DNA of 64,000 nucleotides from positions 256,491 through 320,490 of the forward strand of contig NIVC01001283.1 of the NCBI GenBank assembly GCA_002269645.1, given 5' to 3'. Below the pieces are notes generated by a model. The model saw nothing but the letters and a program-made list of their open reading frames with translations. It was not told where the DNA came from and made no database searches. How positions within the stretch are numbered: the first letter of the stretch is position 1; the number at the start of each line of letters is the position of its first letter. The stretch comes from Macrostomum lignano. Taxonomy: Eukaryota. Shown piece after piece: positions 28,134 to 62,010 of the stretch. The position numbers and the translations under genes were made by a program.

Positions 28134-28750
28134 TTAAACGCAGCCTCGGACACTCTAACCACAGAATTTGAATTAAACGGCGTTTATTATTTACATAAAT
28201 TCAGAGGTAGATAATGCTAAGTTTGATAATTTTTTGTCTATGTCTCGCCATGCTATACGTGTTGCTCAATGGCGTTGCTTAACAATCAGGCATACGACAG
28301 GCCATACAACAATGCGAGTGTCCACACGGTTCTACCATTGACAATCTACCATTGTCGCAAACTTTCATTTCGACGCAATACCAATTTCAAAACGTTGTTG
28401 TTTAACACTTTTTTTACGATTTTCATAGACAACGAATCGAATAGGAGCAAGTTCATAACAAGCGTATTTATGTAACAGTTTAACAGCATGGAGAAATGAA
28501 TCCTTCATGCTTAACAGTAGCACTACTACGAGCAGTAGTCATATCGGAAAAGACAACATATAAGCCCTCAGCCCGTTACTGACGCCAGCACAGATCCAAA
28601 TTGTTAGTTGTTTAAGGTAAACGTGCAGTTTTCGAAATGGCAATTTTCAAACATTCGTAAAACTTGAGCTTGGATATTTCTAACAGAAAAATGAAAAATC
28701 TATCAAAAAAACACTGGAGGTACATCTCGAAAGTCCTAAAGTTGCGGTTT

Positions 28751-33974: not shown

Positions 33975-35045
33975 TGGAACTATGAAAACACTGTTAAATT
34001 GTTTAACATGACTCTGTCACTCAATATATTCACCGCCAATGTCTTTGCACTTTGCCAGCGATGTACCAGACCTCTGATTCCGGAACTCACATCACTCGCG
34101 TCCGTTTGACGAACAGTTAGATTACAAGCAGCTTCGATGTGCTCGACGCTGTCGAATCGAATGCTTCGAAGGTGCCTCTTCACAGATGGAAATAAAAAAA
34201 TTCGCATAGCGAAAAATCAGGCGACTAAGGTGGATATTCGAGCACTTTCCAGCCCCATTTGCTCAGGAGTTCCACGACGTTGTGCTTGCGATGTGCTGGC
34301 GCATCACGCCAGATTCCAGCAGACCAGGGCGCTTCTTTCGTATTTCTGGGCGCAACTTCTCCTGCAGAATCCACTTGTAGTAGTCCCCATTGACGGTGGT
34401 TCCTTGTTGGACTGCCCAGTTCAGCACGATTCCTTGGGAATCAAAAAGCATGACGTGCATGATCTTCATCGCACCCTACTTCCTGATGGCCTTCTGAGGT
34501 CTTGGAGAATGTGCTGGAAGGCATTCGGCAGACTGGGACCTTGTCTCAGGATCCCAGCTGTAAACCCACGTCTCGTCTCCAGCAACAATTCTCGATAAAA
34601 AATCCTCTCCTTCACGATGGAACCGACACAGGTGGCTGCTTGAAGCCACAGTTCGCTGCATATTTTGCTCACCTGTCTGCAGGTGTGGCAACCACCTGCT
34701 GAACTTTTTTTGCAGGTGAAGATGCTCAGTCAGAATGGTGTGGACGCTTCCTACTGACACACGAATGTCTTCTGCCAACTCTTCGCAAGTCCGTCGCCGA
34801 TCATCATCCAGGAGTTCCTGCACTGTCTTCACAGCAGTCTCGTTGGTTGCTGTCATCGGCCTTTCAGAGCGATCATTGTCTTCAACGCTCTCTCGTCCCT
34901 CAGCGAATAGCTGGTACCATTTTCGAACTGTCTGCTCAGTTGGTGCACAGTTGCCAAGCACTTACTGAAGCTCCCTAAACATATCCGGTGGCTTTTTTCC
35001 TTGCAGAAACTGAAACTTCATCAAGCTTCGAACGTCTGGTTTAGA
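33975..35045 (-). pseudogene. mariner transposase pseudogene
   Basis: IVAGDETWVYSWDPET, LFDSQGIV, TVNGDYY, LRPEIRKKRPGLL, FPSVKRHLR; several stops and frameshifts. Confidence 0.85.
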
Positions 35046-35059
35046 ACTGAGGCCTAACA

Positions 35060-35280
35060 ACAGTATACCTAGCAACATTTCTCGTCTCTAATCTCAATTG
35101 ATAGCTCGTAGTTGTTCGATTGTAAGTCAGTTCGGCCTCTCACCTCTCAGGTGCCGAGCTCTCAGATTCAGCTTTTATTTCATTTATCGGTTGCTATATC
35201 TCTCGAGAGTCTCCTCTCTAGTGATGCTCACACGAACAGGCAATTCAGCCTAGCAAACACCATTGACAAATTAATAATAA
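35060..35280 (-). pseudogene. Short YR remnant
   Basis: TTTCTCGTCTCTAATCTCAATTGA is shared with ~33774-33797 (LSIEIRDEK). Confidence 0.4.
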
Positions 35281-35792
35281 ATGTTCTAATAACTTAGAAA
35301 AACTTTTCTGCTGTGCCCCAGCCTTTATCTCTGTTTAATCCCCAGTGTGGCTCAGTCCAGTGTCTATTGTATGTAACGCATTTTATTTTATGGCCGGGTC
35401 AGGAAATATTTCACGGCCGGGCCGTGAAATCAGCTAGTGCAGAACAGTGCCTGGCCGAGCCACACTTAGGTTCAAATATGATAACACCCTCTAGATTTGC
35501 TGTCTATGGCGTAAAGAATGGCTTCGGACTGCGCTTCTAGGCCTCCTCAACCATTCTATACGCCAAAAAAACAAATCTGGGGGGGGGATTTTATCTTATA
35601 CTTATTCCCCACTTGGTCGCACATTTATTTCTTTCTTTGGCCGAGTCATAGAAAAAGGCACCGGGCCAAAGAAGCGGGCCAATAAAAGGTGGAAACGAGT
35701 TTTATTTGGAAACTATAATGCAATTAATAATGAATTTAATAGGGGAGCATGTAGAGTAGCCATATTGTCAATACGGATCAGCCAAACGTAGT

Positions 35793-36022
35793 CTACTCGA
35801 ATATATTGGTCACGCTGTTCGTTTCACCACAGATGTTAATCTTCATTTTCTTAGTTGTTCCCATCATCCCTACCGTCGCAGAAGATTCTCCCTTGACAAA
35901 AGCGATCGAATCAGAGCCTGCTGATTCGTCCGGTTGGTCTCCGTAGGCAGCAGCGACTAAATTTATGTCAGATGGGGGCGAGATGGCCGAGGTCAGGCAA
36001 ACAGACGTAGACTCGACCATCG
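35793..36022 (-). pseudogene. C-terminal part of the YR gene split by the 12 kb insertion
   Basis: Joins in frame across the GACAAGAG TSD to the frame ending ...GHSSAALERYIGVSLSQQKRHSAIHSGSC at 48067. Confidence 0.75.
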
Positions 36023-36329
36023 GACAAGAGCAAAGAGTATTGAGGTCGCCTAGTATAGAGTGCCAATAAGGATGAAAATCTGAAGCCGATTTTTAGAATC
36101 CACCCACCCCTCCGGTCACCAAGCTTTTTAGTCTATGGCACAAGTTGTGGCTAGAATGGTGTACAAAGCCGATGCTCAGAAATATACATAAAGTGCATGA
36201 GAAAAATACAAGTAGCTAATGTAGCTGGACGAATACCATGTATGCTTAAAACGTCCTCAAGACTTTATTTCTGTATCCATACTGTAACTGTACGTACATT
36301 TATTGCATTGTGTAAGGAGAAAAGAAGTT

Positions 36330-39300
36330 ACTACTATATGAACCCGTATGTGTTGATTTTGGAGGGGGGGGTGGGTGTCAACCCTCCTCGCCTCTCATTG
36401 GCTGGCGCCCCGATCACTAGGTGATCGATACCCGTATCGATATCGGCGCTCGGCGCGCGCGCGCCGCAGGCGCGTGGCGCCAAGCGCCGCAGGCGCACCC
36501 TCCCGATATTAGATCCCAATAAATCAATCAGATCCCAAATCAATCAGATCCCAAATCAATCAGATCCCAAATCAATCAGATCCAAGCGCACCCTCCAGAG
36601 CAGCAGGCGTCCATGCCGCAGGCGCCCCTCCCCACCGCACGCGCCCTCCCCCGACATGTATGCCGCAGGCGCCCTCCCCGCCTCAGGCGCCCCTCCCGAT
36701 ATGTATGCGCACTCTCCCTATATGTACACCGATATGTATGCAGCAGGCGCCCGAGTGTACACTCTCCCGATATGTGTGTACACCGATATGTAGTCATCGA
36801 TACGGGCCTCTTCCCCTCTCTCACCTACATCTCAACTAGCGAAATCGAACCCAGGTCGCGCCCATACTAGGACACTACACGGTTGTGGGGTATAGGGAGC
36901 GAGAAGTTTCAACCCTAACGCTGACGCAGCCCTGTACAGTGAGAGTGTACGGGCAGAGAGGGGTGGGGCGGACAGAGAACCAGCCACTAGGTTGTTATAC
37001 TGTTGAAGCATAGGGAGCGAGAAGTTTTAACCCCGATGCTGACGCAGCCCTGTACACTGAGCGTGTACGGGCAGAGGGTGGGTGGAAAGAGATGTGAATA
37101 ACACAGCCTGCTGCAGGAGCCGGATAGAGAGGCGCATGCTAGGACAGAGAGGTAGTGTGAGTCACACACACCCCACAGAGAAAGCCATACAGAGGATAGA
37201 GAGCTCCCTCCCCAGTTGCAGGGGACAGAGAGGCAGGCAGGGTATGCAGGGGCATGCGAACCGTCAAGGGGCCACGCGAGGATAGAGTGGAGGAGCAGAG
37301 ATGTGTTTGGACAGAGAGCCAGCCACGTGTGCGTAGTGTGAGGGAACAGAAACATATGGAGCAGGAGGGAGATAGGAAGCAAACGCGCAGGGTAAGGGAG
37401 CCACACAGGGCGGTACAGTGAGACACGGGCAGGGGTGGAGCCGTGCGTGGACAGAGCTGAACGGCACGGTCAGCTGCAGGAATAGGATGATAGAGAGGCG
37501 CGGAGGGGGACAGAGAGCAGTGTGCAGGGGTAGGCAGCCACGCAGGCTGGGGAACAGAGAGGCGCGTGTCAGCCAGTTGCAGCCCGGGACAGAGAAGTAT
37601 GAAGGGGGCCTGGGACAGAGTTCCGAGCAAGGCACAGAGGTAGGGTCCTGTAGCTATGTATAGGCAGGGAGCCACGCGAGGGCAGGACAGGGGAGCAGAC
37701 ATGCAAGTTGCATGCAAGGCCAGAGAGGTGTGCGCGGAGGGAGACAGAGAGCAGTGTGTAGGGGTAGGTAACAGCAAACTTTAGTAGCGGCGCGTGCGGG
37801 GACGGAGAAACCAGTCAGAGCATACAGAGACGTTACAGAGAGGTACACAAGCAGAGACCAAAGCGAGCAGAGCACATGTGTAGGGACAGAGACGTGAGGG
37901 AGAATCGACCAAAACACGCTATGTATTTTCAAAAGTTGGTTTTAGTGCAACATGTTTAATAGTGGGTAGTATAATAGTATGTACATAGTAGGTATAATAG
38001 TAGTAATAATAGTAAGCATATTAGCCCAAAAGGTAGACTAAAACAGGCTAAACTGTGTGTACGCATCCTCATCACCCCACAAGCCCCCTCTCCCGCCAGA
38101 CTCACTCTACCAAACCCTCCTGTATTGCTGCATGAAGGAAAATATAGTGTAAAAATACAGATCTTAACCGTCAGACCGCTGAAATCAGGGCACACTAGAG
38201 GGGGTTTCGGGGTCTGCATGCTCTATGTAAGCTGCTTGAGGAGGTTCCAAGGGCGTTGTGAGGGTTTCCATTATGTTTTGAAAAAAAACTAGAGGCTTAA
38301 ATACAACGTTTTATTCAAAAGTAGGTTATTTTAATGAAATAGCTGACACAATCATTGTCGAGAGTAGAAATTTTTATAAGAAACCAGGCATTTTAGCAAA
38401 AATAAACCTTCAAACCACATAAAATTGAATAAAAAGCAGACATTTTCAATTATAAACCGCAAGTATTTTAATAGAAAAGTAAGCAAACAAGGCACAAAAC
38501 CAGCAAATTTTACCTTTTTATTTTAATGTTACTGATAAGGTAGAGAGTAGAAACTTGTGAGCTGTACGGAGTTAGAAAGTATTAACCATTATGTATCGTA
38601 TGAATTATTAGTTCAGTACCAGCCATTGGTCAAGCGAGCATTTATGAAGTTATTACGAGTGATGAAGGGATAGAGAGCTATATACAGGAAGACAGTATCC
38701 TTCTAAACCACCACGAACAGATTGCTAATAGAGATAAGCTTTGTCTGTGTGCAGTATGAGTAAGCGAAGGCGGGGCAAATACTTTTCCACATGCCGGACA
38801 GAACAGTATTGTGCTAGGATTTCTCTCGAAATCGCGGTACGTTACTAGTTTTTATCACACCATCCAGATGCGTCAACTAGTCAGCAGTAGTCATTTATAT
38901 GTTATTAGAACTTACAAACCCAGGTCAAGTAAATATTACAAAGAGTATATTACGTACACACGCCAACTCCGAATACCAAGCCATACTAGTCTACTTGCAG
39001 TGCTCCTGGAGGGAAGGGACGGCGGGGTGTACATCCGGCAGGGTGGGCGTCCAGCGAGTGTACATCTGACAGGATGGGTGTTCAGCAAGTGTACATCTGA
39101 CAGGGTGGGCGTTCAGCAAGTGTACCTTCAGCGTCGAGTAGGTGTACACCCGTCAGTGGGAACTCAGCCCCTCCCACCAATGTCGTGTGCATGCGGTTAG
39201 TCAGTATAGTGGTGGGGTAGACGGTGCAGGAAGGAAACCCAGATGCTGACGCTGCCCTGTACAGCGAGCAACCAGCCCTCCTGTAGCAGGAGGGGGACAG

Positions 39301-41423
39301 AGAGTGCGTGGAGGCAGTAGGAGATAGAGGACGCTACCCGGCATGTCGCAGCACGCGGCGCGGGACAGAGAGGCAGTGTGTAAGTCACCCCCACAAGGAG
39401 AGCTGCCCTGGCAGGAGGCGCGGGACAGAGAGGCGGTGAATCACACCCCACGGAGAGAGCCGTACAGCGAGCTTCCCCACCCGAGTCCGGTAAATATTAC
39501 AGAGTATTACGTGCACACGCCAGCCCTGAATACCAAGCCATACTAGTCTACCTGCAGTGCTCCCAGAGGGAAGGGATGGTCAGGAGTTACACACCAAGAA
39601 TGCATTCATACAAAGAGTACACAACTCGAGCCCAGACACCAAGTCACAGTCTACTTACAGTAGAGATGGTAGATTAATAGCAAGATTATATTACAATTAG
39701 ACCTCCCTAGCACATGAGGAGTGAAATTCAATAATAATTGAATTCAATAATAATACAACATTTAGACGTAGTAATTTAATTACAAAATACCACTAACACT
39801 GAGCCAACGAATTGTAGGTTACAAAGGAGTTGCCACTCATATGGAAAGCCAGTATAATGCAGGTGTATATTATTAAAACATAGACAAAAACGATGCAGAC
39901 GTATATACACACTATTGATTTTGTACATGTACATTTCGGCATATTACCACACATCGCAGGCACATATTATATATCGGGGATAGGTTAAAATACACACATC
40001 GTAGATGTAGAAGCAGACACAATGCAGGAAAATTATGATACGAGTGTACATATTAGTGCGTAAAAGTATCATATTATGACACCCTGTAGCACATATTGAC
40101 ATAATGCAGGGGAAAATATTGACAGAAATAGTACACAATTGTAGAGGTAACAACCCGCCAACTAGTAAGGACATCCAGCACTTGTTCAGGTTTTTATTAT
40201 TTCGAGACGAGTGTCATGCCCCCGCAAGAGATCTTATCAGAAATTTGTTGAACTCCACTGCAACTCTCCCCAGAGCCTCCAAATGTGAGTTTTTAACCCA
40301 GGGTCGAGTACAAAGGACCCGCCCACTCTTAACCCCAAGGGGTGATCGTAGCGGAGACCAAGTACAGTGCGGACGGAGAGGGGTAACAGAAAGCGCTACA
40401 TCAGACCGTAGGGCTGCATTCCTCCCCCGAGGTAGGCGCGTCAGCTCCCACTCCTCATTTAACCATCAAGTAAACTAAAGAAGTCAAGCAGAAAGCCTTA
40501 CAATCACCCGCAACCAGCACAAGTAAGAGTACTTTCCACTAGAGAGCCATAGTGCAAGATTCGCGAGCCAAGTTGAAGAAGCACACCAAATTACACTAAA
40601 GACATATGTATTAAAAAGCATACCGGCACCTCTACAAAAACACAGTATGTACCGATTAAAGTTGCTTTTGGTGCAGTGTATTTAATAAAAAGCAGGTACC
40701 TAACACAAAAGTAGGCATCAATGCAGTGCACGGGCTAAACTGTATTTACAAACGCAGGGCAACGAACTACACACAATGTAGCGCATAGACATAATTGTAC
40801 GCATAAATGTACGCAATTTCCGGTATATAGGACCAAATGTACACAATGTACACAAACACACACACACACACTCAGGCGTATTCACAGCAAGAGCTTCCTG
40901 CCGATGGCGCCATCGCCTGCGGCGATCGGTGCTGCAGGATGCGCTGCAGGATGCGCCTGAGTGTCCACACAGGACACACATATCGGGAGAGTGTACACTC
41001 GGGGCGCCTGCTGCATACATATCGGTGTACATATAGGGAGAGTGCGCATACATATCGGGAGGGGCGCCTGAGGCGGGGAGGGCGCCTGCGGCATACATGT
41101 CGGGGGAGGGCGCGTGCGGTGGGGAGGGGCGCCTGCGGCATGGACGCCTGCTGCTCTGGAGGGTGCGCTTGGGATCTGATTGATTTGGGATCTGATTGAT
41201 TTGGGATCTGATTGATTTGGGATCTGATTGATTTATTGGGATCTAATATCGGGAGGGTGCGCCTGCGGCGCTTGGCGCCACGCGCCTGCGGCGCGCGCGC
41301 GCCGAGCGCCGATATCGATACGGGTATCGATCACCTAGTGATCGGGGCGCCAGCCAATGAGAGGCGAGGAGGGTTGACACCCACCCCCCTCCAAAATCAA
41401 CACATACGGGTTCATATAGTAGT
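36330..41423. mobile_element. Non-autonomous Polinton/Maverick-like element
   Basis: ~450 bp near-identical TIRs (36330-~36778 vs ~40975-41423), termini ACTACT...AGTAGT, 6 bp TSD GAAGTT (36324-36329, 41424-41429); no pPolB or integrase recognised. The structure is certain; the superfamily is inferred. Confidence 0.7.
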
Positions 41424-41652
41424 GAAGTTGAGCAGGATTCTTGCAGCAGAGTCGGAAAGACAAAAACATAAGTGATAAACGCGTTATGTTAAGGCAGAGT
41501 GAAGGTGCAGCAGTGGGAAAAGCAAAAAGCATAAGTGATAAACAGGCAGAGCGAAAGAAAACAGTACTATGAGCAAATAAGCAGGAAGTAATGTAGCAAA
41601 CATGTCAAGTGAGAGAGGAGAGGAGTCATAGCCTTGATCGCCAGAAGAATAT

Positions 41653-41955
41653 CTAAAAATTCATGAAGATTATTGTTCTGTGCAACCGATTCCGCACAGA
41701 TAGACCATGTAGCTTGTCGCGACTGGCCTTTTCGATGTGTTTAGAACGCAGGAGGAAAAAGAATTCGGCAAAGAAGGAAATTAGCTGCGGTCCGTGGTTG
41801 TTGCTTAAACTGTTGCAGGTCAGTGAGTCAATGAGTTGCAAGTCCATTGCCAGCGCGAAAATAGAAGATTTATATTTACTGAGAACATTTTTATCCTGAT
41901 AGGCTTGTCGAATTACAATATCTCTGATGGTTGATGATACGCATCCATTTGACAT
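41653..41955 (-). pseudogene. P/THAP9-like transposase C-terminal remnant
   Basis: HGPQLISFFAEFFFLLRSKHIEK..RTIIFMN resembles the THAP9-family tail; lies inside the P-family TIRs. Confidence 0.45.
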
Positions 41956-42477
41956 CTCCAGCAGATCTTAGTGGCACCCGCGCTCGCCACTCTCTCAGAC
42001 GATCGACGTCCTTGAAAGGCAGACGAAAGAAGGATACAGATGCATCAGAAACGCAGTTATTGCAATTAGCTACCGCGCACTTTAGTGGCTTGGCTGTTGT
42101 TGTTCAGACGTAAGGGCTATATGACATGGCTGTTACGGAGTTGTGTATCGACGACGGCAACTGAGTCTGGTGACTGAGCGATGTTGTCTTGCTTATTTGA
42201 TACATGCATTTTCTAAGTGTGAAATGTCTTATATTTCTGAGCATCGGCTTTGTACACCATTCTAGCCACAACTTGTGCCATAGACTAAAAAGTGTTATGC
42301 TTTTCGTATTGTGCTTTTGGAGACCGTGATGCGCAAAGACCGCTCTTGAATTGTTAAGTTCTTTTGGAGCTCTTGGGCTCTCAGCTTTTCTCAAATTTTA
42401 TTGTCCCATGACTGAGCGTGCGTTTTTGGTCCAAAAAGCGTGCATTAATCTTACAGCCCAACCCTATGCGGCGTAGC

Positions 42478-42555
42478 CAAAAAAGCGTGCAGATAATGAA
42501 AAAAGCGTGCAGATAATGAAAAAAGCGTGCAGATAATGAAAAAGCGTGCAGATAA
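42478..42555. repeat. Four tandem 20 bp repeats AAAAAGCGTGCAGATAATGA
   Basis: Directly visible; single copy at ~44459 near the other end of the element. Confidence 0.9.
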
Positions 42556-42898
42556 TAGCGTACAGCGCCACAAAAAACAGCAGTTTGCAAGTGTGAGTTT
42601 TGGTGTTCGTTGTGTTGGCTGTTTTGGGGGTTGGCCTGCGCTGGGAGGTTGGGCACGCTTTTATTCACCTGAACCTATATTGATCGGAATGTACGCGCGT
42701 ACATAGTGAATGACAAATATATATATATATCGACTAACTTGGCCTTTGAGCCCTCGTACTGATTTTCTCGCAATTCTGGTCTTACACAAGCAACGTTTAT
42801 TAAAACAAAGGGGAAAAACACAGCAAAATTTAACACCGATGCACAGAAACAAAAAGTCAGCAGTAAAACAGATGACAGCAGAAAGGTCGACGAAGATC

Positions 42899-44337
42899 TT
42901 AGATGCGTCCAAACGTGCAGCCGGTGACGTGACCACTGAAATTAAATACAACCTGTGGTACAGGCCCAATAGTATTGGTGGTTGGGGGCTCCGCGATCAC
43001 ACGAGCAGCAGGATCGTCCGTATTCGCCACGGCCCGTCGCGGGACCTTGCACAGAAGCGCCAAAACCTCCTTATCGACGCAGGCCACCTGGTTCGCGTGC
43101 ATCACCGTGTTCAACGACGAGCACATGTCCTGCATCTCGCCAACGCGGCGTGACCCGAATCAAAGGTACCGCTCGACAGAGGCCGTGGCCTTGTGCCCCG
43201 TGACCTTGCAAATGTCGGATACTGAATGGCCGGCCACGGAGAGCTCCTTGATGACGGTGGACCGAACGCAGTGCGCAGTGTAGCGCCGGCTCAAGCTGGC
43301 TGCCTCGCAAATGCGTGGGAAGAGCTCGGCAAAGCCATTAACGCCAATAGGCTGCTTGGGCGAAAACCACGTCCCCTTCTCGAAACCACTAACCTTCGGC
43401 TTCAGGAAGAACGCCACGTCATCGGACGCCTTTTCGCCACAAGATGAAGAGCTAGGAATTGACGCACTTCTCTTCAGGAGGTAAAGTCGGAGGCACTCGA
43501 CCGGGCACTTCACAGGAGACTCGGTCATCACAGCCTCCTTGACATTGTCGCTAGCGGCACGGCCCAAGTCCCTGGCGACATTCTTCACCCGCTTCTCTCG
43601 AAGGCGAACGATCTCGCGACCGTCGGGGGCCTTGTCGAACTCGAAGCTGTCCACCCGCAAATCCCTCAACCACTCTCGACCACGGGTGCCGAAGTAGAAG
43701 ACGACGTTGTAGTACGTCTCATGCAGAAGGCGAGTGGGAGTGCTCCGGTCGAAGTAGTCACCCAGTTTCTGTAGGTCCGATGGCTCCATAGCCTGGAAGT
43801 GGTCCACGCGGCCACCGCGGGCAAAGAAAAGACGCCCACCGGCCTTCAGCATTTGATTTGCAGAGTAGAATCGACCATCGGAAATGATGTTGATGCCCCG
43901 GTTCTTCATCAGGTAGCGGAACAAGGCAGCGCGAATGCACACGAGGCTGCTAGGAGCATACGGCTGGCCATCAGTCTTGCGAAGAGTGCCGTAAAAGTAG
44001 CGCAGGCCAACGCTCAGCTCCTCAGGTTGCGAGGTGTCCAAATCGACGCGCAGGTGCGGATACTTGGCCAAGAAATCGCGAAATTTCGCGACGTATTGAG
44101 CCTCATGCTTCTTAGACGATTTACATCGGTCTCTTGCTCCAGCGCCCGGATTGATGCGTCAAGGTCGATCGAGGCCAAGTCGTCGTTCAAATCAAGGATG
44201 GAGTCGAATAGGCGGTTCAGCTCCTCGTTGTCGTCCACACTAGTTGCTTGGAGACGTAACTGCTCGTCCACAAGCTTCTCAACGTCGGCCCACTCAAAAT
44301 GGTGGGAGATCTCACCGGCCGTCATGCCGCTTCTCAT
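42899..44337 (-). pseudogene. Tyrosine recombinase (Crypton/DUF3504-type) with one frameshift and one premature stop
   Basis: Catalytic R (GTRGRE), HxxR (TAHCVRST) and Y (TGHKATASVERY) present; frameshift near 44075; TGA at 43160-43162 reads through in frame to 42899. Confidence 0.88.
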
Positions 44338-44542
44338 GCCGTTAGGAAATAATGAATCCATATGGGGCCAAACTCACGATCAGAAGCTTGTGCATAGCAA
44401 GAAATTGTCTATGGTCACTAAGAAAATGTCTATGGTAGGAACTCCTAGCTGCAGGAACAAAAAGCGTGCAGATAATAAAGTACAGTGCTGTGACAAAGAA
44501 TTTTTTCAACGCACGCTCAGTCATGGGACAATATGCCTACTA

Positions 44543-46084
44543 TTGGTTTTTGCATGCTAAGTGAGACATTTTTCAAGCAATCTGAGACTGAATAGCAAAA
44601 ACACTATTGTCTATGGCCACCCCTCGCTGCAGCCCAGCTTTTTGGGCGCGCCTTGCAAGTAAAGTGAGACATTTTTTTCAAGCTAAGTGAGAACCATATT
44701 GAAAAAAGGGGTGGTTTTACGAAATTACAAAATGATGTACTGTCGGAAACTATATATTTAGAAAAGGATACGCAGGAACACAACAAAACAAGCGGTACAA
44801 AAATTGTTGATAATGTTATAAGCGTTCAAATAAAGGGTTGCATGTTGATACACTGAGCAAACTTTCGAGTGCAGTGGAGCTCCCAGCCTGCGATCTTGTG
44901 CGGAGTAATGACATGCAGCGATTCTCTTCCAAGCCGATCCATCAGCATGTATCGCCAATCATCTCGTGTCATGCCTGGTGGGCAACCGTTTTCCTCAGCC
45001 ACGATTGCGGGCTCTACAAGGCGACGCTTAATCTCACTCTTAAGAACGTTGTGCGCCATGCCATCTCCACGGGATTCAAAAACGGCGAGTACGCCGGTAA
45101 GATTTGCAGACGAATGAGATCCTCAAACTGCTCAGGTATCTCAATCCCTTGGTGAAAATTTGGACCATCGAAAATGAGAATAACTCGTCTGCCAGGAGCA
45201 TCGGCCTGTATGATGTTAGCCAGTTCCAAAATAAACTGCTGAAATCTCTCTCGTGTTTGACCACCTCGCTGCAGCGTACAGTGGACAAGACCCAGTTCAG
45301 ATGACACTGCTAAGCACATCGTCATGTTGGGACCCCTCTGCGTTACCACCGTTCGTCGCACAGGCTGGCCAACTCTTGCTCGACCCTGCGTCCTTCTCGT
45401 CCATAGGTTGTAGCCAGTCTCATCGATAAACACAGCCAGGTCATTCACAGGCAGTCCCGTCATCATCATAGCATAGTCGCGCCTCGCTTGTATCACATCC
45501 TGTGTATTCGCAGCAAGCCTCACGTCGGCATCCTTGGTGGCGACTTTCAGTGAGATAAGCATGGAGCTCATCGCTCTAGCAATGGTGGATTCAGAGATAG
45601 CCGGCTTTTGTGGCAACTCCAAAGTTAGTTTTCTCTGCACATCCGTCAGAGTAACATAGGGATTTTGCTCAACTATCTGCTCAACGGCGTTCCGCATTTC
45701 AGCATCCATTTTTGTTGACCCCGGCTTGCGGCCACCGCGTTGCAACGCATGGAATTCACCAGTAGCTGCGTAGCGACTCCATATCCGATAGGCCGTCTTC
45801 TTGTTCAGATTAAGGATTTTGGACGCAGTCGAAATTGAGTAACCATCTTCGACGGCATTGACCAGGCGCTCTCTATCCTCGTTGCTTGTTAGACGCAGTT
45901 GATTTGCCATAGCCCAGCCTTTGTTTTCAACATGGTTCTCACTTAGCTTTAAAAATTTCTCACTTTGCTTGCAAGGCGATCCCAAAAAGCTGGGCTGCAG
46001 CGAGGGGTGGCCATAGACAATAGTGTTTTTGCTATTCAGTCTCAGATTGCTTGAAAAATGTCTCACTTAGCATGCAAAAACCAA
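44543..46084 (-). mobile_element. IS630/Tc1-like transposon A
   Basis: ~165 bp TIRs TTGGTTTTTGCATGCTAAG, TA flanks; transposase from ATG 45910 with FIDETGYN / FDGPNFH / PAYSPFLNPVE; a 5 bp duplication (GCCAT) near 45060 frameshifts the C-terminus. Confidence 0.93.
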
Positions 46085-46151
46085 TACTAGGCTTACTCGT
46101 GCGATAATAGTCTATGGCACTCGTGCGCTTCGCGCACTCGAGCCAAGACTA

Positions 46152-47739
46152 TTGGTTTTTGCGAGCTATCTCAGCCAAGGAGCAAGCAAACTCATCCATC
46201 CCATAGATTTCAATACGACGAAGGAGGTGGTTTGAACCATAGACTATCACGTTTTTTCAACCAAACTCATCCAACGGGCGAGCAATTTCAGCCATAGCTT
46301 GTTTATTAAGCGAAAAATTTAATTGGTTCGTATATAAGAGACTTTATGATAGAGCAGCACATCAGAACACAGGAAATTGACTAACGGAACAAACAAATGA
46401 CTCACTAAATAAGCACTGGTTGCATCTGATGCACGGTGTCAATTTGTCAGCTAGTCTCATTAGACAAAGGGCTGCTGCTGGATGCACTGAGCATAATTTC
46501 TGCCGCAATGAATTTCCCAGCGAGCCACCTTCAGTGGTGTCACCGTGTCCAAGGCAATGCGGCCAAGTCGCTCCAACAGAATACAGCGCCACTCGGTACG
46601 GTTCATTCCATCCGGAATTCCACCAGCTTCCTCTTCCACCAGGGCAGGATTGACCAGCTGCCGTCTGATGTCAGCCTTCACCGCGCTATGCGCCATTTCG
46701 CATGGGTTTAGGAACGGCGAATAGGCAGGAAGCAGCTGCAGTGAAATCCTCGGCTGATGATTCTGTGGCACGATGACTCCACGGTGGAAGGTCGGCCCGT
46801 CACAGACAATTACAATTCTCGCATTGTTAACCTGGCCTTGGACTTGCTCCACTAGCTCGTTTACAAACTGTTGAAACCGCGGCCGCGTTTGGCCTCCTCG
46901 GAAGATCTCACTCTTGACCAAACCCAGCGCAGAGGAGACGGCAAGGCAAATGGTCAAATTTGGTCCTCTCTGAGTGGTGCAGATGCGACGCACAGGCTGA
47001 CCTCTGATTGCTCGGCCTTGTGACCTTCGGCTCCACAAGTTATATCCAGTCTCATCGATGTACACCACCACGGCATCGTGTGGCAGCGTCGTCATCATCT
47101 GGGCATAGTCGCGTCGTCGGGCAAGCACTTCATCCGAGTTGGCTTGCAGGCGAATGTCCGCGTCCTTAGTCGCAATTTTGAATGTGTACAGAGAGCCCTG
47201 CAGTGCTCTGTGCACAGTCGTGGTCGACACCACGGGTTTGTTTGGCAGTCTTTCGTGCAGCTGCTGACACATGGTCTCGAGTGTTGCAAACGGATTGGCA
47301 TCCACAATGCGAGTCAACTCTTGGCGCATTTCTGCGTCAATCTTGCTTGATTCCTCCCGTATTCCGCCACGTTGGAGAGCAGCAATTCTTCCAGTAGCTA
47401 CGTAAGTCCGAATTATATGTCTGGACGTCTTCAGCTTTATCCCGAGAATGCGTGAAGCAGTGCTCAAATTTTGTCCGTCATTCCGGCCATGCGTTGATTA
47501 GCTTCTCTCTGTCGGAGTTGGATGTTTGTCGCAACTGAGCCATCGGAGGAGGAGGAAAGAAAGAAGGGAAGAGGAAATGAATGGGCAGACAAGCTATGGC
47601 TGAGATTGCTCGCCCGTTGGATGAGTTTGGTTGAAAAAACGTGATAGTCTATGGTTCAAACCACCTCCTTCGTCGTATTGAAATCTATGGGATGGATGAG
47701 TTTGCTTGCTCCTTGGCTGAGATAGCTCGCAAAAACCAA
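46152..47739 (-). mobile_element. IS630/Tc1-like transposon B
   Basis: ~165 bp TIRs TTGGTTTTTGCGAGCTATCTC, TA flanks; 335 aa frame 46460-47467 with YIDETGYN / CDGPTFH / PAYSPFLNPCE; first ~20 codons out of frame near 47490. Confidence 0.93.
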
Positions 47740-48066
47740 TATTATCGCACTCGAAAGCCTAGTAGTAATCTAAATATACTAAATCTCTAATATTTGTTTG
47801 TTTGTATGCTTGTCCATAATCTTACATTAACTATGTTTAAGAGAGTCGAGCTCTACTGGCTCAAGCAGCCGTTAGCTGCCTACACAGCCATAGACAAAAA
47901 TGAACTGAATTACGCTCGAAAATACAAGTGAAGCTCGCAATAAGTTTGCTGTGCTCAACCCACAGCAAAAAGCTTGGTGACCGGAGGGGGTTGGTGGATT
48001 CTAAAAATCGGACTCAGATTTTCATCCTTATTGGCACTCTATACTTGGCGACCTCAATACTCTTTG

Positions 48067-48822
48067 GACAAGAGCCAGAGTGAATGGCGCTGTGTCGTTT
48101 CTGTTGGGAGAGCGAAACCCCTATATATCGTTCCAGAGCCGCGCTGCTGTGCCCAGTGACACGTGCAATATCTGCACGCTGTACTCCCGCCTCATTAAGT
48201 GTAGTCGCACACGTCTTGTGCAGGCTAGCGGCCTGTCGGCTCCTAGGACGCCCGTAGCCCATAGCTTGTCTTCGACACTTGACGGGATCGGCTCAGCCCA
48301 CCGGAGTCCAGAGCCCTTGCCGTCGCGCGTGCTAAAATTCATAGAGGCATCCAAAGCGCGTCTAGAGTCAGCAAACTCCTGGTCCCTTCACAGGCTCCAC
48401 GTCTGCTTGCACTGATTCACGATATAATACTGAATCATGCTGAAGAAATCCTTTAGCGACGAGGCAGAATAGCGTTCACCATTCTTATTACGCACTTTCA
48501 ACATGAAGAATCGCAGGACATAGTTTAGATCACTCTTGCTCATGTCTTTAAGATCTTTCAGAACCATCAAGTTCATCACACTCCCATTTGCCTAATGCTG
48601 CTTCTTCAGTGCATGCCAGGCACTGAAGGTGTTGACCATCTGTAGAAAAGTCAATGCCGCGATATTGTGCTAGGCAGGCATGAAAAATAACTCAAGGCCC
48701 GCTTGCACTTAGCAGGGCCGACTTATATATTTGGCTATGACTAATTGCGTAATAAATCAATTATTGAAGTGGTTGGCTGTACGTACTTGTACGGGGCAGT
48801 GATAGCGCCGGACCAAGTGAGC

Positions 48823-48884
<62 letters not shown>

Positions 48885-48980
48885 CAGATGTACACTGCCC
48901 CACACCATCCATTCGCATTTCTTCTTCGTCGTTACTGGAGTCACTGCGTCAATTGCATCAAAGACGTCCTGCTCATTCAT
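48067..48980 (-). pseudogene. Crypton/DUF3504-type YR gene, main part
   Basis: DAVTPVTTKKKCEW; LNYVLRFFMLKVRNKNGERYSASSL; AEPIPSSVEDKLWATGVLG; IARVTGHSSAALERY; contains a (GA)n tract at ~48822-48883. Confidence 0.8.
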
Positions 48981-50330: not shown

Positions 50331-50496
50331 TCCTTGGACTGAACAGCCGTACGCAGCCTTCAGATGCGCCGCGCAATAGCTGCGGCTGAGCTGTCGGTTG
50401 CATATCTGCACATTGGGGCACATGTAATGAAAAATATTCTGAATATCAAAGAATGAAGAGTAAAGGGTCAGACGGAGATTGAGATATTTGAGGAAT

Positions 50497-50882
50497 CACA
50501 CAGAGCTCACAGTTCACAGAGCTCACAGTTCACAGAGCTCACAGTTCACAGAGCTCACAGTTCACAGAGCTCACAGTTCACAGATCTCACAGTTCACAGA
50601 GCTCACAGTTCACAGATCTCACAGTTCACAGATCTCACAGTTCACAGAGCTCACAGTTCACAGATCTCACAGTTCACAGATCTCACAGTTCACAGAGCTC
50701 ACAGTTCACAGATCTCACAGTTCACAGAGCTCACAGTTCACAGATCTCACAGTTCACAGAGCTCACAGAGCTCACAGTTCACAGAGCTCACAGTTCACAG
50801 AGCTCACAGAGCTCACAGTTCACAGATCTCACAGTTCACAGAGCTCACAGTTCACAGATCTCACAGTTCACAGAGCTCACAG
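50497..50882. repeat. 16 bp minisatellite GA(G)CTCACAGTTCACA
   Basis: More than 20 tandem units alternating GAGCTC and AGATCT variants. Confidence 0.95.
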
Positions 50883-51538
50883 TATCGTGTCCATATAAAC
50901 GCACAGTAGAACTCTCAACTCAGGGAGTGAAAGTGAACTGGGCTTCGCGGCTCAAAAACAATGCTTAAAACTTGGTCAAAACTCTCCAATACTGTCAGCT
51001 GCTACTGCAGTGGGCGGAGCTGGCCGAAAATGTGTCCCCTTATCCCCTAATGGTAAATAATTCAATGGGAGCTTGCTTCATTGATTTGCTCACCCTCTGT
51101 CTCTCACTCTATTCCTCTCTGAAGTGGCGATTTATTGTCGCTATTGGCGCTTAGTTGGCGCCGTAGAACTGCCTGCCTGACGAGTTCTGTGCAGACACGT
51201 TCGTAGGCGTCCTTGCCTATTTGCTATATACAGATATAGTTGGTAGCATAGAGTTTTATGTGTTGCTAAGCTAGACCGCCGATTACGTAATAATATTAGT
51301 GAATTGCACAATGCAGCTCAAGTATATGGTCCGGTCTAATTGTCTGTGTGTTTTTTTCTTTTTACCAATTCATTTCTGCAAGTCTGAATTGAGTCGCTTT
51401 CTGTAAACTTGGACAATTTTAATTATCTCAGCAATGCATTTGGCATGCTTAAGTAGCGATATATTTCTTGGCATGTGGCTAATATTATTTGATAATATTA
51501 CTCATAAACTTTTTCCGAATTCGTCCGAATAAGCAGAC

Positions 51539-52045
51539 CAAAGAGTATTGAGGTCGCCTATAGTATAGAGTGCCAATAAGGATGAAAATCTGAGGCCGAT
51601 TTTTAGAATCCACCCACCCCTCCGGTCACCAAGCTTTTTAGTCTATGGCACAAGTTGTGGCTAGAATGGTGTACAAAGCCGATGCTCAGAAATATAAGAC
51701 ATTTCACACTTAGAAAATGCATGTATCAAATAAGCAAGACAACATCGCTCAGTCACCAGACTCAGTTGCCGTCGTCGATACACAACTCCGTAACAGCCAT
51801 GCCATATAGCCCTTACGTCTGAACAACAACAGCCATGCCACTAAAGTCCAGCTACATTAGCTACTTGTATTTTTCTCATGCACTCTATGCATATTTCTGA
51901 GCATCGGCTTGTACACCATTCTAGCCACAACTTGTGCCATAGACTAAAAAGCTTGGTGACCGGAGGGGGTGGGTGGATTCTAAAAATCGGCTTCAGATTT
52001 TCATCCTTTTTGGCACTCTATACTAGGCGACCTCAATACTCTTTG
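51539..52045. mobile_element. P-family MITE (507 bp)
   Basis: ~155 bp TIRs CAAAGAGTATTGAGGTCGCC; 8 bp TSD AAGCAGAC (51531-51538, 52046-52053). Confidence 0.92.
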
Positions 52046-52650
52046 AAGCAGACGTTTTCCTGTCCTCAATTTCGCTGCATTTAATGCCTATTAATATATA
52101 TACATATATATATCATTCTTCAAGCCAAGAGCCCGCATCGGTGCCAGTGTTGGGCTGCTAAGGCCAAATAGACAAAGCAGCGCGTGCTGGCTGCGAGCCA
52201 GCGAATCTAAGGCCGGGGGGGGGAGAGAAGGGGAGAGAGTGAGGAGAGAGCGGGGGCAGTCAGTCGGGTGTGAGGAAGGAGAAGAGAAACAGGCCATCCG
52301 CTGCATTTCTATTTCTAGGAAAGCCTACACGGCCTCTACGGTTTTCAATGCAGCAAAACTTCCCCCGTGGCTTCCCACGCTCCCTTCTGCAGCTCTCCGC
52401 CTGAGCAGCCAGCTTCTGCATTGAGTAGGAACACCAGACCAGGGAGAGTTGCTTCTCTGACGCACCTGGCAATTACGCAACAATCGGTGGAACACAAGCA
52501 GCTCGAGTAAGGAGAGGCAATTCCGCCAGAGCAAACAGCACTATTTGCTCCTGCTACTGCCTGCCGCTGCTCAGAGCGTTCGCCAGGCTGGATTCCTGAC
52601 TCACCCCCGGGCGTTGGCACACGCAGCCAGGCTGACAGCTGCACCGCATC

Positions 52651-53199
52651 ATGCTGAAGTGGGCCAGCGGCAGCTCACCCGCTCCAGCTGGCCAGGCAGG
52701 CAGCCAAGCCTGCCCCGATCAGGTCGGCCTCGAGCACCCACCGGCTTCGAATACCTCGGAGCAAAGCACAACTCCTGCCGCTGCCGCCTCGGCCTCGTCG
52801 CCAGCCGTGTCTCTTTGCCGGTTCGGTCGCGGGCTTCGTCTGGCGTCGCTCTTCAACTCGACGGCTCAGTCGAGTCGCTGCGGCAGCAACAGCGGCGGCG
52901 GAGGCGGCGGCGGCGGGTCTCTGACGGAGCTCGCCTCAGTGGTGTCGGCCGCCACCACGACTGACAGCGGCGCCGTTGTGGAAGCGGCCTCGTCAATTTC
53001 GTCGAAATCTTCCAAGTCGTCATCAAAATCGTCGAATTCTACGAAATCGTCAAAGTCTTCGACGAGCTCGTCGCCGTCGTCATCGTCAGCTTCGTCCGCT
53101 GCTTTGTCGAAGTTCAAGCTTGTTGGCAGACGGTTGCAGCAGCAAAAGCACAGCCGGTCTCGCAGCGTTGACCGGTGCTCTCTGACTGCCAGCTCTCCG
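52651..53199 (+). CDS. Probable first coding exon (Ser-rich, low complexity), possibly of the TTC28-like gene
   Basis: GC-rich open frame from ATG 52651; strong donor GTGAGT at 53200; linkage to the downstream exons is unproven. Confidence 0.45.
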
Positions 53200-53254
53200 G
53201 TGAGTCTCAGGAAACAGACTTTGTCAGCATCTGATGAAGAATAGATGCCATTAC

Positions 53255-53945
53255 AGTGTGTCTACCATTCCTTTGTTGTGTCTACCATTCCTTTGTTGTG
53301 TCTACCATTCCTTTGTTGTGTCTACCATTACAGAGCGTGTGTCTGTGTCTCCCCACTGGAGTGTCTGTGTCTCCCCACTAGGGTGTCGGTGTCTCCCCAC
53401 TGGAGTGTCTGTGTCTCCCCACTAGGGTGTCTGTGTCTCCCCACTGGAGTGTCTGTGTCTCCCACTGGAGTGTCTGTGTCTCCCCAATGGAGTGTCTGTG
53501 TCTCCCCACTGGAGTGTCTGTGTCTCCCCAATGGAGTGTCTGTGTCTCCCCACTGGAGTGTCTGTGTCTCCCCAATGGAGTGTCTGTGTCTCCCCACTGG
53601 AGTGTCTGTGTCTCCCCAATGGAGTGTCTGTGTCTCCCCACTGGAGTGTCTGTGTCTCCCACTGGGGTGTCTGTGTCTCCCCACTGGAGTGTCTGTGTCT
53701 CCCCACTGGAGTGTCTGTGTCTCCCCAATGGAGTATCTGTGTCTCCCTACTCGAGTTCTGCTGTTACATGTGCGTTCAATAACCCATAGATGAATCTGTC
53801 ATATCCGATAGATGAGTCTATCATATCCGATAGATGAGTCTATCATATCCCATAGATGAGTCTGCCATATCCCATAGATGAGTCTGCCATATCCCATAGA
53901 TGAGTCTGCCATATCCCTTAGATGAGTCTGCCATATCCCTTAGAT
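53255..53945. repeat. Three adjacent ~21 bp minisatellites
   Basis: GTGTCTACCATTCCTTTGTT; GGAGTGTCTGTGTCTCCCCA(C/A)T; ATAGATGAGTCTGCCATATCCC units. Confidence 0.95.
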
Positions 53946-54376
53946 GTTTGAAACACCACACTGACAGCAGCTTACAAGAGTGAATTATTGTAATATAAGA
54001 ACTATTCACCATACGAGCAGTGACCTCGACTGACTCTGGGAGAGCTGCACAACTGTCTTTAGTATTTCTGCACAAGCAAATCAACTTCAGCATGGCCTGC
54101 TGCTGCCTTCCCTTGCACCCCACGGCGAAACTCAACAGAACTTCTTTTGTTTCTTTTGTGCGCGAGAAAGAGAAGGAGAAGAGAGAGACGAGGCAGTTAA
54201 CGATTGAGAAGCTGAAAGACAGGGAAAAAACCGAACAAATAGACGACGGGAGTTTTAAACAGCTCCTAGCAGAAGGAAAATGTCATCAGGGCCGAAGCCA
54301 CCTCTGCCGCCAGGACAAAGCGGTCGGCTGCTGCTGGCTTTAAGTTCCCCTTTTCTTCAAATTTTTACTAGTAGCG

Positions 54377-55695
54377 TTACCCTCTCTCCCTAGAGCCCCT
54401 ACCCTCTCTCCCTAGAGCCCCTACCCTCTCTCCCTAGAGCCCCTACCCTCTCTCCCTAGAGCCCTACCCTCTCTCCCTAGAGGCCCTACCCTCTCTCCCT
54501 AGAGCCCTACCCTCTCTCCCTAGAGCCCCTGCTCTCTCTCCCTATAGCCCCTACCCTCTCTCCCTAGAGCCCCTGCTCTCTCTCCCTATAGCCCCTACCC
54601 TCTCTCCCTAGAGCCCCTACCCTCTCTCCCTAGAGCCCTACCCTCTCTCCCTAGAGCCCCTACCCTCTCTCCCTAGAGCCCCTACCCTCTCTCCCTAGAG
54701 CCCTACCCTCTCTCCCTAGAGGCCCTACCCTCTCTCCCTAGAGCCCTACCCTCTCTCCCTAGAGCCCCTGCTCTCTCTCCCTATAGCCCCTACCCTCTCT
54801 CCCTAGAGCCCCTACCCTCTCTCCCTATAGCCCCTACCCTCTCTCCCTAGAGCCCCTACCCTCTCTCCCTAGAGCCCTACCCTCTCTCCCTAGAGCCCTA
54901 CCCTCTCTCCCTAGAGCCCCTGCTCTCTCTCCCTATAGCCCCTACCCTCTCTCCCTAGAGCCCCTACCCTCTCTCCCTAGAGCCCCTACCCTCTCTCCCT
55001 AGAGCCCCTACCCTCTCTCCCTAGAGCCCCTACCCTCTCTCCCTAGAGCCCCTACCCTCTCTCCCTATAGCCTCTACTCTCTTTCCCTAGAGCCCCTACC
55101 CTCTTTCCCTAGAGCCCCTACCCTCTCTCCCTATAGCCCCTGCTCTCTCTCCCTATAGCCTCTACTCTATTTCCCTAGAGCCCCTACCCTCTTTCCCTAG
55201 AGCCCATACCCTCTTTCCCTAGAGCCCCTACCCTCTCTCCCTATAGCCCCTGCTCTCTCTCCCTATAGCCTCTACTCTATTTCCCTAGAGCCCCTACCCT
55301 CTTTCCCTAGAGCCCCTACCCTCTCTCCCTAGAGCCCCTACCCTCTCTCCCTAGAGCCCTACCCTCTCTCCCTAGAGCCCTACCCTCTCTGCCTAGAGCC
55401 TTACCCTCTCTCCCTAGAGCCCCTACCCTCTCTGCCTAGAGCCCTACCCTCTCTCCCTAGAGCCCCTACCCTCTTTCCCTAGAGCCCTACCCTCTTTCCC
55501 TAGAGCCCCTACCCTCTCTGCCTAGAGCCCTACCCTCTCTCCCTAGAGCCCCTACCCTCTTTCCCTAGAGCCCTACCCTCTCTCCCTAGAGCCCTACCCT
55601 CTCTCCCTAGAGCCCCTACCCTCTCTCCCTAGAGCCCTACCCTCTCTCCCTAGAGCCCTACCCTCTCTCCCTAGAGCCCTACCCTCTTTCCATAA
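54377..55695. repeat. 21-22 bp minisatellite CTAGAGCCCCTACCCTCTCTCC
   Basis: About 60 tandem units. Confidence 0.97.
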
Positions 55696-56214
55696 AGCCT
55701 TGCGCTAAAATGGGCAACTCCCGTAACTACAGCTTTACCCCAGCTAACTCACTCGGCATGTCAACTACAATTAAGTTAAATGACAGTGTGCAGATGATCA
55801 CGGAAACCATTTATTATACATTAATCAAAGATTAGTTTACACACTGATTGGCACAATACAGACAGAATATAAAATAGGGCTTGGCGCACTGGTGACTAAT
55901 AATAATATTAATTAGGTGTACTGCTATACAGTAGCAATTAGAGAATAGTGACAGAAGTCAATCTGGCGAACCCGGGAACCCCGCTGAGAGTCCTTCAATT
56001 ACTGCAGCTGATTCAGCAGTGGCTGCTGGCCCTGCAGTCCCCGACATGCACGGGTACTGATGCAAGTGTTTCCATTCATTTCTTGTCCTCTTGTTGTCTG
56101 CCCCTGGTCCCGTCTTCTATTCGCCTTTCTCTCCTGTATATCTCCTCAGGTCTCTCTCACCCCTGCATCTCCCTCTCCTCATCCGTAAGCCTCTTCTTTC
56201 CTCTCTCCTCCCTC

Positions 56215-57653: not shown

Positions 57654-57659
57654 GTGCGT

Positions 57660-58390
<731 letters not shown>

Positions 58391-58409
58391 TAACTCGGTA
58401 AACTTGCAG

Positions 58410-61727: not shown

Positions 61728-62010
<283 letters not shown>

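Follow-up and report, generated by a model that had tools for sequence, protein, structure and literature searches.

The window, a stretch of 64,000 nucleotides from Macrostomum lignano (contig NIVC01001283.1, positions 256,491 to 320,490), contains a DUF3504/QRICH1-type (CryptonA-like) recombinase gene interrupted by an insert of 12,036 bp (36031-48066). The gene lies on the minus strand, with its 3' part at 35793-36030 and its 5' part at 48067-48980. The insert has a terminal inverted repeat (TIR) at each end, and the 8-bp target duplication GACAAGAG flanks it on both sides (36023-36030 and 48067-48074), the left copy closing the 3' part of the gene and the right copy lying within the 5' part; the sequence-only reading had identified these ends correctly. 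It had also proposed that the gene rejoins in frame upon removal of the insert. Both peptides quoted for it are present in the translation of the window, and the homolog G000:C296, a natural empty site, reads through in frame (...HSAILSGSCPMFESASV...), but this is the preinsertion state of a dead gene. The host gene is dead irrespective of the 12-kb insert: its translation has two in-frame stops and a frameshift, and the catalytic core is missing. The stops and the frameshift lie in the 5' part, which also carries an ~260-bp high-copy insert at about 48641-48903. The empty site of the outer element occurs as a joint in all four short-read runs as well.

Without its inserts, the outer element is a nonautonomous, P-type element of about 1.36 kb in three parts. 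The left part (36031-36329) closes with the 6-bp duplication GAAGTT (36324-36329), the middle part (41424-42292) extends from the second GAAGTT (41424-41429) to AAAAG (42288-42292), and the right end (47968-48066) consists of AAAAG (47968-47972) followed by the TIR. Both TIRs are intact and are 95% complementary. A 507-bp deletion derivative with the same ends, already noticed at 51539, was confirmed at 51539-52045 with the duplication AAGCAGAC. The label “P family” given to these elements is plausible in view of the 8-bp duplication and the TIRs, but no transposase could be tied to the ends: no P transposase was found between them in 17 single-end loci and C1484 or by a search with the internal open reading frame (ORF). 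P transposase frames as such gave 138 matches in the genome, several of them in frames of 900 to 980 amino acids. When the flanks of both ends were pooled, the target had G at position 1 and C at position 8 in 45 of 62 cases and A/T three bases outside the duplication in 58 of 62, a preference that we take to resemble P rather than hAT targets. The outer element may instead be a hAT element.

The AAAAG duplication flanks a 249-bp solo long terminal repeat (LTR; TG...CA), the left half of which (42293-42402) ends in ATT (42400-42402) and the right half of which (47826-47967) starts from a second ATT. Between these halves lies a Crypton-like tyrosine recombinase (YR) element on the minus strand (42403-47825). 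Its YR gene (44373-43160, minus strand, in two frames here) is real, with PF12012 above the Pfam cutoff and QRICH1 and Phage_integrase below it, and this DUF3504-type recombinase is the only gene of the element. The earlier description of the element as TIR bounded did not hold, however. Its true end is at 47825, the 26-bp repeat at 44533 being an internal inverted copy of the left end (44508-44533), and ATT is found as a direct repeat at both ends in the window and at three other loci. What had been listed as a separate hairpin passenger is the right end of this YR element, and it is broken there by two IS630/Tc1-type elements, both called correctly before. These elements (a, 44543-46084; b, 46152-47739; both minus strand) each have a DDE_3 transposase (Pfam), TIRs, and a TA duplication, and their empty joints are present in the reads. 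A second solo LTR of 195 bp (42592-42786; TG...CA, 4-bp duplication CAAG) lies in the 3' region; like the 249-bp LTR, it had been overlooked, and both LTR types occur paired around gag-pol elsewhere, in elements on C1195 and C17. At three other loci (five records), the Crypton-like element lacks all three passengers. Joint movement of the Crypton-like element with IS630 cargo was considered and rejected: a YR-IS630-type junction was present in five records, of which four have one flank in common, and the ones that were read had a different insert at that TA and a relative of IS630a at another TA in the same hairpin. The hairpin is thus a repeated target. CryptonA elements, as far as PMC3212892 describes them, carry only a DUF3504-type YR, and no terminal repeats were found in animal Cryptons; our element resembles them in its single gene, its lack of TIR-bounded ends, and its short direct boundary repeat but differs in the 3-bp ATT repeat, the internal inverted copy of the left end, and the terminal hairpin.

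The history of the insert can be read from a sister locus, G000:C2183, which has the same outer ends, insertion site, and duplication but an element of only 1.6 kb. It shares the 249-bp solo LTR with the window and lacks the palindromic layer, the Crypton-like element, and either IS630, with clean empty sites kept at GAAGTT and ATT; the 507-bp derivative is also missing there, and its AAGCAGAC site is empty. Homeologs of M. lignano are given in PMC10733133 as differing by 32 to 36% when long indels are counted. The sister locus keeps a smaller, earlier state with empty sites, and the insert was built stepwise in place. The 1.36-kb P-type element entered the Crypton-like gene and received the solo LTR, as still seen at the sister locus. 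In the haplotype of the window, the P-type element then received the palindrome, and the Crypton-like element landed inside the 249-bp LTR; the two IS630s lie in the hairpin end of this Crypton-like element, and the second solo LTR lies in its 3' region. Each layer belongs to its own multicopy family, and canonical duplications are found at all junctions of the composite other than that between the palindrome hairpin and the arm remnant. As judged from these comparisons, the 12-kb insert is an in-place stack of seven insertions that did not move as a unit, one of the two histories that the sequence-only reading had offered. The composite as such is ordinary; like other nested transposon clusters, it consists of unrelated elements inserted sequentially, with intermediate states on homologous chromosomes, and we see no substantial difference from them.

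The 5.1-kb layer at GAAGTT (36330-41423), for which the sister locus has an empty site, had been described as a Polinton-like element. It does have Polinton-type TIRs and a 6-bp duplication, but it has no coding content and represents a 9-kb palindrome reduced to one arm. Its terminus, ACTACTA-N20-TTTTGGAG (36330-36364, plus strand), contains a hypervariable 20-nt cassette (36337-36356) and is mirrored at 41389-41423. The left arm (36330 to ~40870) leads into an imperfect central hairpin common to the family (40868-40964), after which the right arm retains just its outer ~450 bp (40974-41423), about 4 kb being absent. Folded as DNA, positions 40860-40985 gave a z score of -4.8, and the fold-back continuation beyond 40964 is present in all four short-read runs. 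No Pfam match was found in 16 ORFs of at least 85 amino acids from one arm or in three ORFs of the window, and no Rfam match was found in 36000-48200 at an E value of 0.5. Long palindromes are difficult to assemble, and one family copy (L082) has mirrored flanks that look like an assembly error, so the one-armed form might be a collapsed full palindrome of 9.1 kb within a true insert of about 16 kb. We regard such a collapse as rather unlikely: nine extra bases separate the hairpin from the arm remnant, as would often be expected of repair scars, other copies also lack part of an arm (L081 and L083) or show one arm only (L271 and L275), and all the other junctions have canonical duplications. 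Four contig sets from the reads gave no coverage of the deletion junction itself (40965-40973), which speaks neither for nor against the clipped form.

Across the genome, the family consists of noncoding palindromes of 8.1 to 9.4 kb, with arms of about 4.5 kb around one fixed, imperfect central hairpin of ~97 bp, and these elements are self-complementary over their whole length. We found 25 distinct insertion sites with 6-bp duplications, and of the 20 copies for which both ends were present, 18 had a perfect duplication. A further 15 loci were chosen by the center motif alone; 13 of them proved palindromic, and 8 combined both ends with a perfect duplication. The arms of one copy differed by 0 to 1.7% substitutions (median, about 0.1%; 14 copies), with those of L156 (1.7%) and L083 (1.3%) among the diverged ones, and the median for arms of different copies was 1.4%. 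The two end cassettes of a palindrome differed at no more than 1 of 20 positions in 19 of 19 copies. Assembly polishing could have inflated the identity of the arms, yet the matched cassettes are so near the ends that unique flanking sequence is reached within 27 bp. A literature search found no such element, although Repbase, subscription journals, and supplements, which were outside its scope, may list the family.

The ends of the palindromes are shared with a family of coding elements. The end pattern gave 225 matches in the genome (control, 0), and 12 of the 20 end pairs examined delimit coding elements of 8.8 to 9.8 kb with 6-bp duplications; four measured copies of a sister family are 9.5 to 10.4 kb. 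A scan of viral contigs with the same pattern gave a single match with no further similarity, which was taken as chance. The coding relative, of about 9 kb, encodes an intron-split, protein-primed DNA polymerase B (PolB; PF03175 above the Pfam cutoff) and a PC4-like protein. The GT-AG boundaries of two PolB introns are kept in 13 of 13 coding copies, and the polymerase exon shows 450 synonymous versus 152 nonsynonymous codon differences, counted pairwise to one copy and so not independent of one another. Neither an rve integrase nor an A32-type ATPase was found by Pfam in 37 ORFs of one coding copy (L147), a scan that a gene of short exons could escape; the same scan detected rve in each of the two full Polintons and A32 in one of them. 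The coding relative gave no Pfam match for a capsid or protease, in a test of such low sensitivity that it named none in the full Polintons either, and its third ORF gave no Pfam or Atlas lead. Four cassettes of 20 nt are exactly the same in palindromes and coding elements, and L146 is a half-and-half recombinant with two different ends inside a perfect duplication. In 3 of 12 coding copies, the two ends differ at 8 to 14 of 20 positions, against 0 of 19 palindromes, a small contrast. Similarity between the palindromes and the coding element is confined to the outer 0.3 to 0.5 kb. Because the interior of the arm (beyond about 0.5 kb) is dissimilar, the palindrome is not a simple snap-back of the coding element.

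Full Polintons are also present in the genome, at 16 to 17 kb. Published Polintons/Mavericks are listed in 10.1101/2023.08.22.554363 with lengths of 13 to 25 kb, TIRs of 100 to 1,500 bp, and duplications of 5 to 8 bp. Our family resembles them in its long TIRs, 6-bp duplications, and short-repeat ends and, in the coding relative, in PolB and the PC4-like gene. It differs in that the palindrome is all TIR and without genes, with no Pfam match to a PolB or retroviral-like integrase, and in that the coding relative measures about 9 kb, carries its PolB interrupted by GT-AG introns, and yielded no integrase or packaging ATPase. Among six full-Polinton loci, a TIR pair was found in three; all three start with AGTAGTA, in contrast to the ACTACTA of the palindromes and coding elements, and none has DNA in common with that family. 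The polymerases of the full Polintons barely match that of the coding relative (phmmer E value of 0.12 or worse), and ORF and DNA comparisons of 20 stretches inward from further ends revealed no full Polinton with ACTACTA ends. The differing ends and polymerases weigh against the cycle proposed below, in which a putative Polinton-type integrase would act on the palindrome in trans.

Taken together, these observations lead us to propose, with a probability of about 0.7, that the insert is an in-place seven-layer stack and that its 5.1-kb layer is a clipped, gene-less palindrome, likely a snap-back satellite of the polymerase-coding relative. From the anatomy of the elements, we can outline how such a palindrome may replicate. 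A single strand would fold on itself as a 4.5-kb duplex with the hairpin as its closed end. From the open ACTACT end, the polymerase of the relative would prime synthesis that continues around the hairpin and yields the 9-kb form with two ends. A strand freed by displacement would immediately snap back, its repair while folded would hold the two arms, and likewise the two end cassettes, similar to each other, and the Polinton-type integrase would then insert the palindrome. The broader scheme of three tiers of protein-primed replicons, in which Polintons lend the integrase, the ~9-kb element provides replication, and the hairpin-closed satellite swaps cassettes with its helper, is put forward tentatively, at slightly worse than even odds.

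The palindromes could alternatively be foldback-type elements that an integrase or transposase cuts and pastes or copies from the chromosome, have no free replicating stage, and owe the likeness of their arms to chromosomal gene conversion. Foldbacks such as Tetris, FB, and Galileo are likewise noncoding and nonautonomous with long inverted repeats, and no free hairpin or linear form of the palindrome was observed. Tetris elements, as characterized in PMC4079207, have TIRs of up to 1.7 kb, a variable middle domain, and 8- to 10-bp duplications, whereas the palindromes have arms of about 4.5 kb, one fixed hairpin, and 6-bp duplications. Moreover, their ends and cassettes are held in common with polymerase-coding elements, and the different ends within the one perfect duplication of L146 point to exchange before insertion. 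We therefore consider a foldback origin unlikely. Still less probable is that packaging in a Polinton capsid holds the family near 9 kb; the sizes of the palindromes, coding copies, and sister family are similar enough to suggest it, but the full Polintons of this genome are nearly twice as long, some derivatives with the same ends are shorter, and the low-sensitivity Pfam test detected no capsid gene in the family. Finally, the suggestion that a miniature element became a cargo carrier, its P-type ends moving the 12-kb composite as one unit, has in its favor the intact ends, the many P transposase frames, and a 25.6-kb end pair with matching duplication at C1484, but it is most improbable given the earlier state at the sister locus, inner junctions seen in the window only (among the scored candidates, 40 of 155, 40 of 888, and 40 of 248), which within this scope is the outcome that the sequence-only reading had named as refuting mobility as a unit, end pairs spanning at most 2.3 kb in 26 of 28 cases (among the first 100 of 138 end matches), and an interior at C1484 unrelated to the composite.

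The proposed satellite has partial counterparts among viruses. Snap-back defective genomes of AAV, as presented in PMC8235507, are also self-complementary, hairpin-closed duplexes, and the palindrome, like them, would need a helper. The palindrome differs in being a stable, integrated, multicopy family with a fixed center, in matching its putative helper over the outer 0.3 to 0.5 kb only rather than being derived from the helper genome, and in that its priming would be by protein and not by a nicking Rep. The shared cassettes and the recombinants would point no more than indirectly to helper-dependent replication outside the chromosome.

In the hairpin telomeres and concatemer junctions of poxviruses and parvoviruses, an incompletely paired hairpin becomes, in the duplex, an imperfect palindrome between perfect arms. 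The central hairpin between near-perfect arms is similar, but it is GC rich and lies inside an integrated element, neither a resolvase nor a Rep was found, and flip and flop forms would be indistinguishable in a symmetric element.

The interest of the family lies in the fact that, for animal Polinton-type elements, the free, protein-primed stage has mostly been inferred. A high-copy, recently active, self-complementary satellite offers an easily detected target in a laboratory flatworm, namely, 4.5-kb hairpin DNA that renatures instantly. If our reading is correct, the palindrome would amount to a snap-back genome that is inherited and transposes, and it would naturally record the free replicating stage of Polinton-type elements. 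The integrase-less elements with an intron-split polymerase suggest that replication and integration are divisible between cooperating elements. In this genome, rearrangements and assembly errors probably also arise from the dozens of near-perfect 9-kb palindromes. Lastly, avoidance of GGNCC sites was considered; one Polinton stretch has 0 (9.5 expected), but such sites occur in the palindrome (6; 15.8 expected) and in the coding elements.

The 12,036-bp insert in the window runs from 36031 to 48066 with a copy of GACAAGAG on each side, as the sequence-only reading had it, and its ends are identical in kind to those of the 507-bp MITE located at 51539-52045. Searching the 764-Mb assembly (G000), in which the window is C1283:256491-320490, we found a sister locus, contig C2183, colinear with the window over almost all its length (99.7% in 4.6 kb next to the insert and 99.4% in 8 kb further left). 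The C2183 element has the same ends and the same duplication but is 1,612 bp long, of which 249 bp are a TG...CA piece and the rest is P-type sequence, and this locus has empty sites for a 5.1-kb element (GAAGTT), for the inner block (ATT), and for the 507-bp element (AAGCAGAC). The third homolog, contig C296, is 86 to 95% identical and has no P-type element; a total of three homologs fits the three subgenomes described for M. lignano, whose paralogs are reported to differ by ~2% in SNPs and by 32 to 36% with long indels (PMC10733133). The P-type element came first, followed by LTR1 (the 249-bp piece), both common to the sister locus, and then by a palindromic element and a Crypton, in either order, in the window only; most simply, the three passengers of the Crypton inserted after it. 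The joint of an empty P site appeared in short-read contigs from four of four runs; the other empty joints (palindrome, one run; 195-bp piece, two; IS630a, two; IS630b, four) may belong to further copies of these families. As a whole, the composite is ordinary nesting, and insertion in place, one of two explanations originally offered, very probably accounts for it. The other explanation, a MITE turned cargo carrier that moves the 12 kb as a unit, is unsupported given this stepwise order, the smaller state at C2183, and the outcome of the junction search that had been proposed: among the candidates scored (40 of 155, 40 of 888, and 40 of 248), the inner junctions matched the window only. At G000:C1484:15359-40973 (L233-L235), the same P-type ends, each flanked by a matching GGTTGAAC, are separated by 25.6 kb, and the interior is unrelated to the composite.

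The host gene is a relic of a DUF3504/QRICH1-type recombinase, with two in-frame stops, one frameshift, an additional insert, and no catalytic middle. The claim that this gene is split and rejoins in frame holds for the reading frame, which crosses the natural empty site at C296, but not for a functional gene; any insertion that duplicates its target should leave such a frame, and with the defects just listed the host gene is not restored. The 249-bp piece and a 195-bp piece are solo LTRs; at C1195 and C17 they occur in pairs that enclose gag-pol genes. The Crypton, the YR element of the earlier reading, has its right end at 47825. Three other loci show the same gene leading into an intact hairpin and ATT, so the hairpin is the element's own end rather than a separate insert; both IS630-type elements do lie inside the composite, in TA sites of this hairpin. 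The window's Crypton end carries an extra 47-bp piece (47773-47819) missing from other copies, and one copy (L095, C3986) has the hairpin end ahead of the left end, like a circular junction, an arrangement consistent with a circular intermediate. Elsewhere in the window, a short IS630a deletion derivative adjoins another element with 186-bp inverted repeats (7657-8289 and 8288-8890). The sister locus lacks a 2.7-kb insert (25487-28200) that contains a frame for a piggyBac-type transposase (PF13843), C296 lacks a segment carrying an HTH transposase relic (34043-35784), and closely packed minisatellites (50400-63400; periods, ~4 to 22 bp) are shared with the sister locus.

The novelty is not the composite but a putative palindromic satellite and its integrase-less partner. 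The layer at 36330-41423, read as Polinton-like, does have a 6-bp duplication (GAAGTT, at the empty site), but its arm has no gene and it is a one-armed copy of a palindrome, the right arm as assembled being short by ~4 kb. Copies matching it (19 of 346 candidates scored) were 93 to 99% identical and had the arm twice, head to head. A perfect 6-bp duplication flanked 18 of 20 palindromes with both ends (one was off by a base, and one had mirrored flanks). When 15 further loci were picked by the centre motif alone (36 exact matches), 13 were palindromic and 8 had both ends and a perfect duplication; the two samples together gave 25 distinct target sites. Full copies span 8.1 to 9.4 kb. Arms differ by a median of ~0.1% in substitutions within copies (range, 0 to 1.7%; 14 copies) and of 1.4% between copies. 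The centre is a fixed imperfect hairpin of ~97 bp that runs on into a mirrored (GT)n stem in four of four short-read runs, so the fold-back is no long-read artefact. A search of the arm for genes and Rfam families found none. Two palindromes (L077 and L078) have the central hairpin region duplicated, and at L082 (C201) and L003-L005 the two flanks mirror each other, as assembly fold-backs or real inverted duplications.

The palindrome shares its ends with a coding element. The motif ACTACTA-N20-TTTTGGAG occurred 225 times (control, 0). Among 20 end pairs fetched from these matches, all with a 6-bp duplication, 12 were elements of 8.8 to 9.8 kb that carry a gene for protein-primed PolB, 6 were palindromes, 1 combined half a coding element with a palindrome arm, and the last was a short derivative whose interior is an LTR retrotransposon. 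The half-and-half element, an 8.7-kb recombinant (L146, G000:C428:214927-223625), joins a polymerase-coding left half to a palindrome arm and has two differing end cassettes within a perfect GAAGCC duplication. GT-AG introns interrupt the PolB gene; for two of them, both borders are conserved in 13 of 13 copies. Change in the gene's long exon is mostly synonymous. Another ORF resembles PC4 (Atlas lead, 0.86; ~30% identity with a full Polinton's PF02229 protein). Screening the 37 ORFs of one copy gave no integrase or ATPase.

The cassette, the 20 bases following ACTACTA, is highly variable (51 variants among the loci examined). Palindrome cassettes differ from one another at a mean of 10 of 20 positions, with very different ones on arms as little as 0.4% apart. 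The two ends of a palindrome agree (identical in 17 of 19, one difference in 2), the ends of 3 of 12 coding copies and of the recombinant differ at 8 to 14 positions within a perfect duplication, and four cassettes are common to both classes. From these patterns we infer that palindromes and coding elements exchange sequence in a free state, ahead of integration, and that palindrome arms are made or corrected from each other.

The anatomy, duplications, copy numbers, shared ends, and recombinants of the two classes are observed, and protein-primed replication by strand displacement is an established mode, on which a cycle can be proposed. A displaced palindrome strand would self-anneal into a duplex of 4.5 kb, closed by the hairpin at one end and with an open origin at the other; copying round the hairpin would restore the 9-kb form, whose two open ends could be the substrate of an integrase supplied by a full Polinton. 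We give such a snap-back satellite cycle a probability of roughly 0.6; against it, no free form was observed, the helper (the coding element) shows no relation to the arm interior, and the integrase donor is putative. The palindrome would resemble a snap-back defective genome in its mode of working (PMC8235507), here in a Polinton-type setting (10.1101/2023.08.22.554363; PMC4028283; PMC6431247). It is not a Polinton, having no genes, nor a foldback as described for Tetris (PMC4079207), nor a simple snap-back, its sequence not being helper-derived. A literature search, with Repbase and subscription papers outside its scope, found no description of such an element.

A sister family of polymerase elements (L213-L216 and L221-L226; C1159, C1263, C2757, C566, and C1945) has a 65% identical PolB. 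Its ACTACGTA ends carry a separate variable cassette, and its target duplications are 6 bp long; four copies span 9.5 to 10.4 kb and one spans 15.1 kb. At L207-L208 (C1485:44724-62000), its polymerase gene lies within a large inverted repeat with arms 92 to 99% identical. Full Polintons (16 to 17 kb, with rve integrases and, in one, a 6-bp duplication) begin AGTAGTA, and their PolB is a barely detectable match to that of the coding element. One of them (C114) has an ORF matching TATA-binding protein (L186:2267-2896; PF00352, E 1.7e-23), and a Polinton on C506 (L180) has 0 GGNCC sites in 10 kb versus 9.5 expected.
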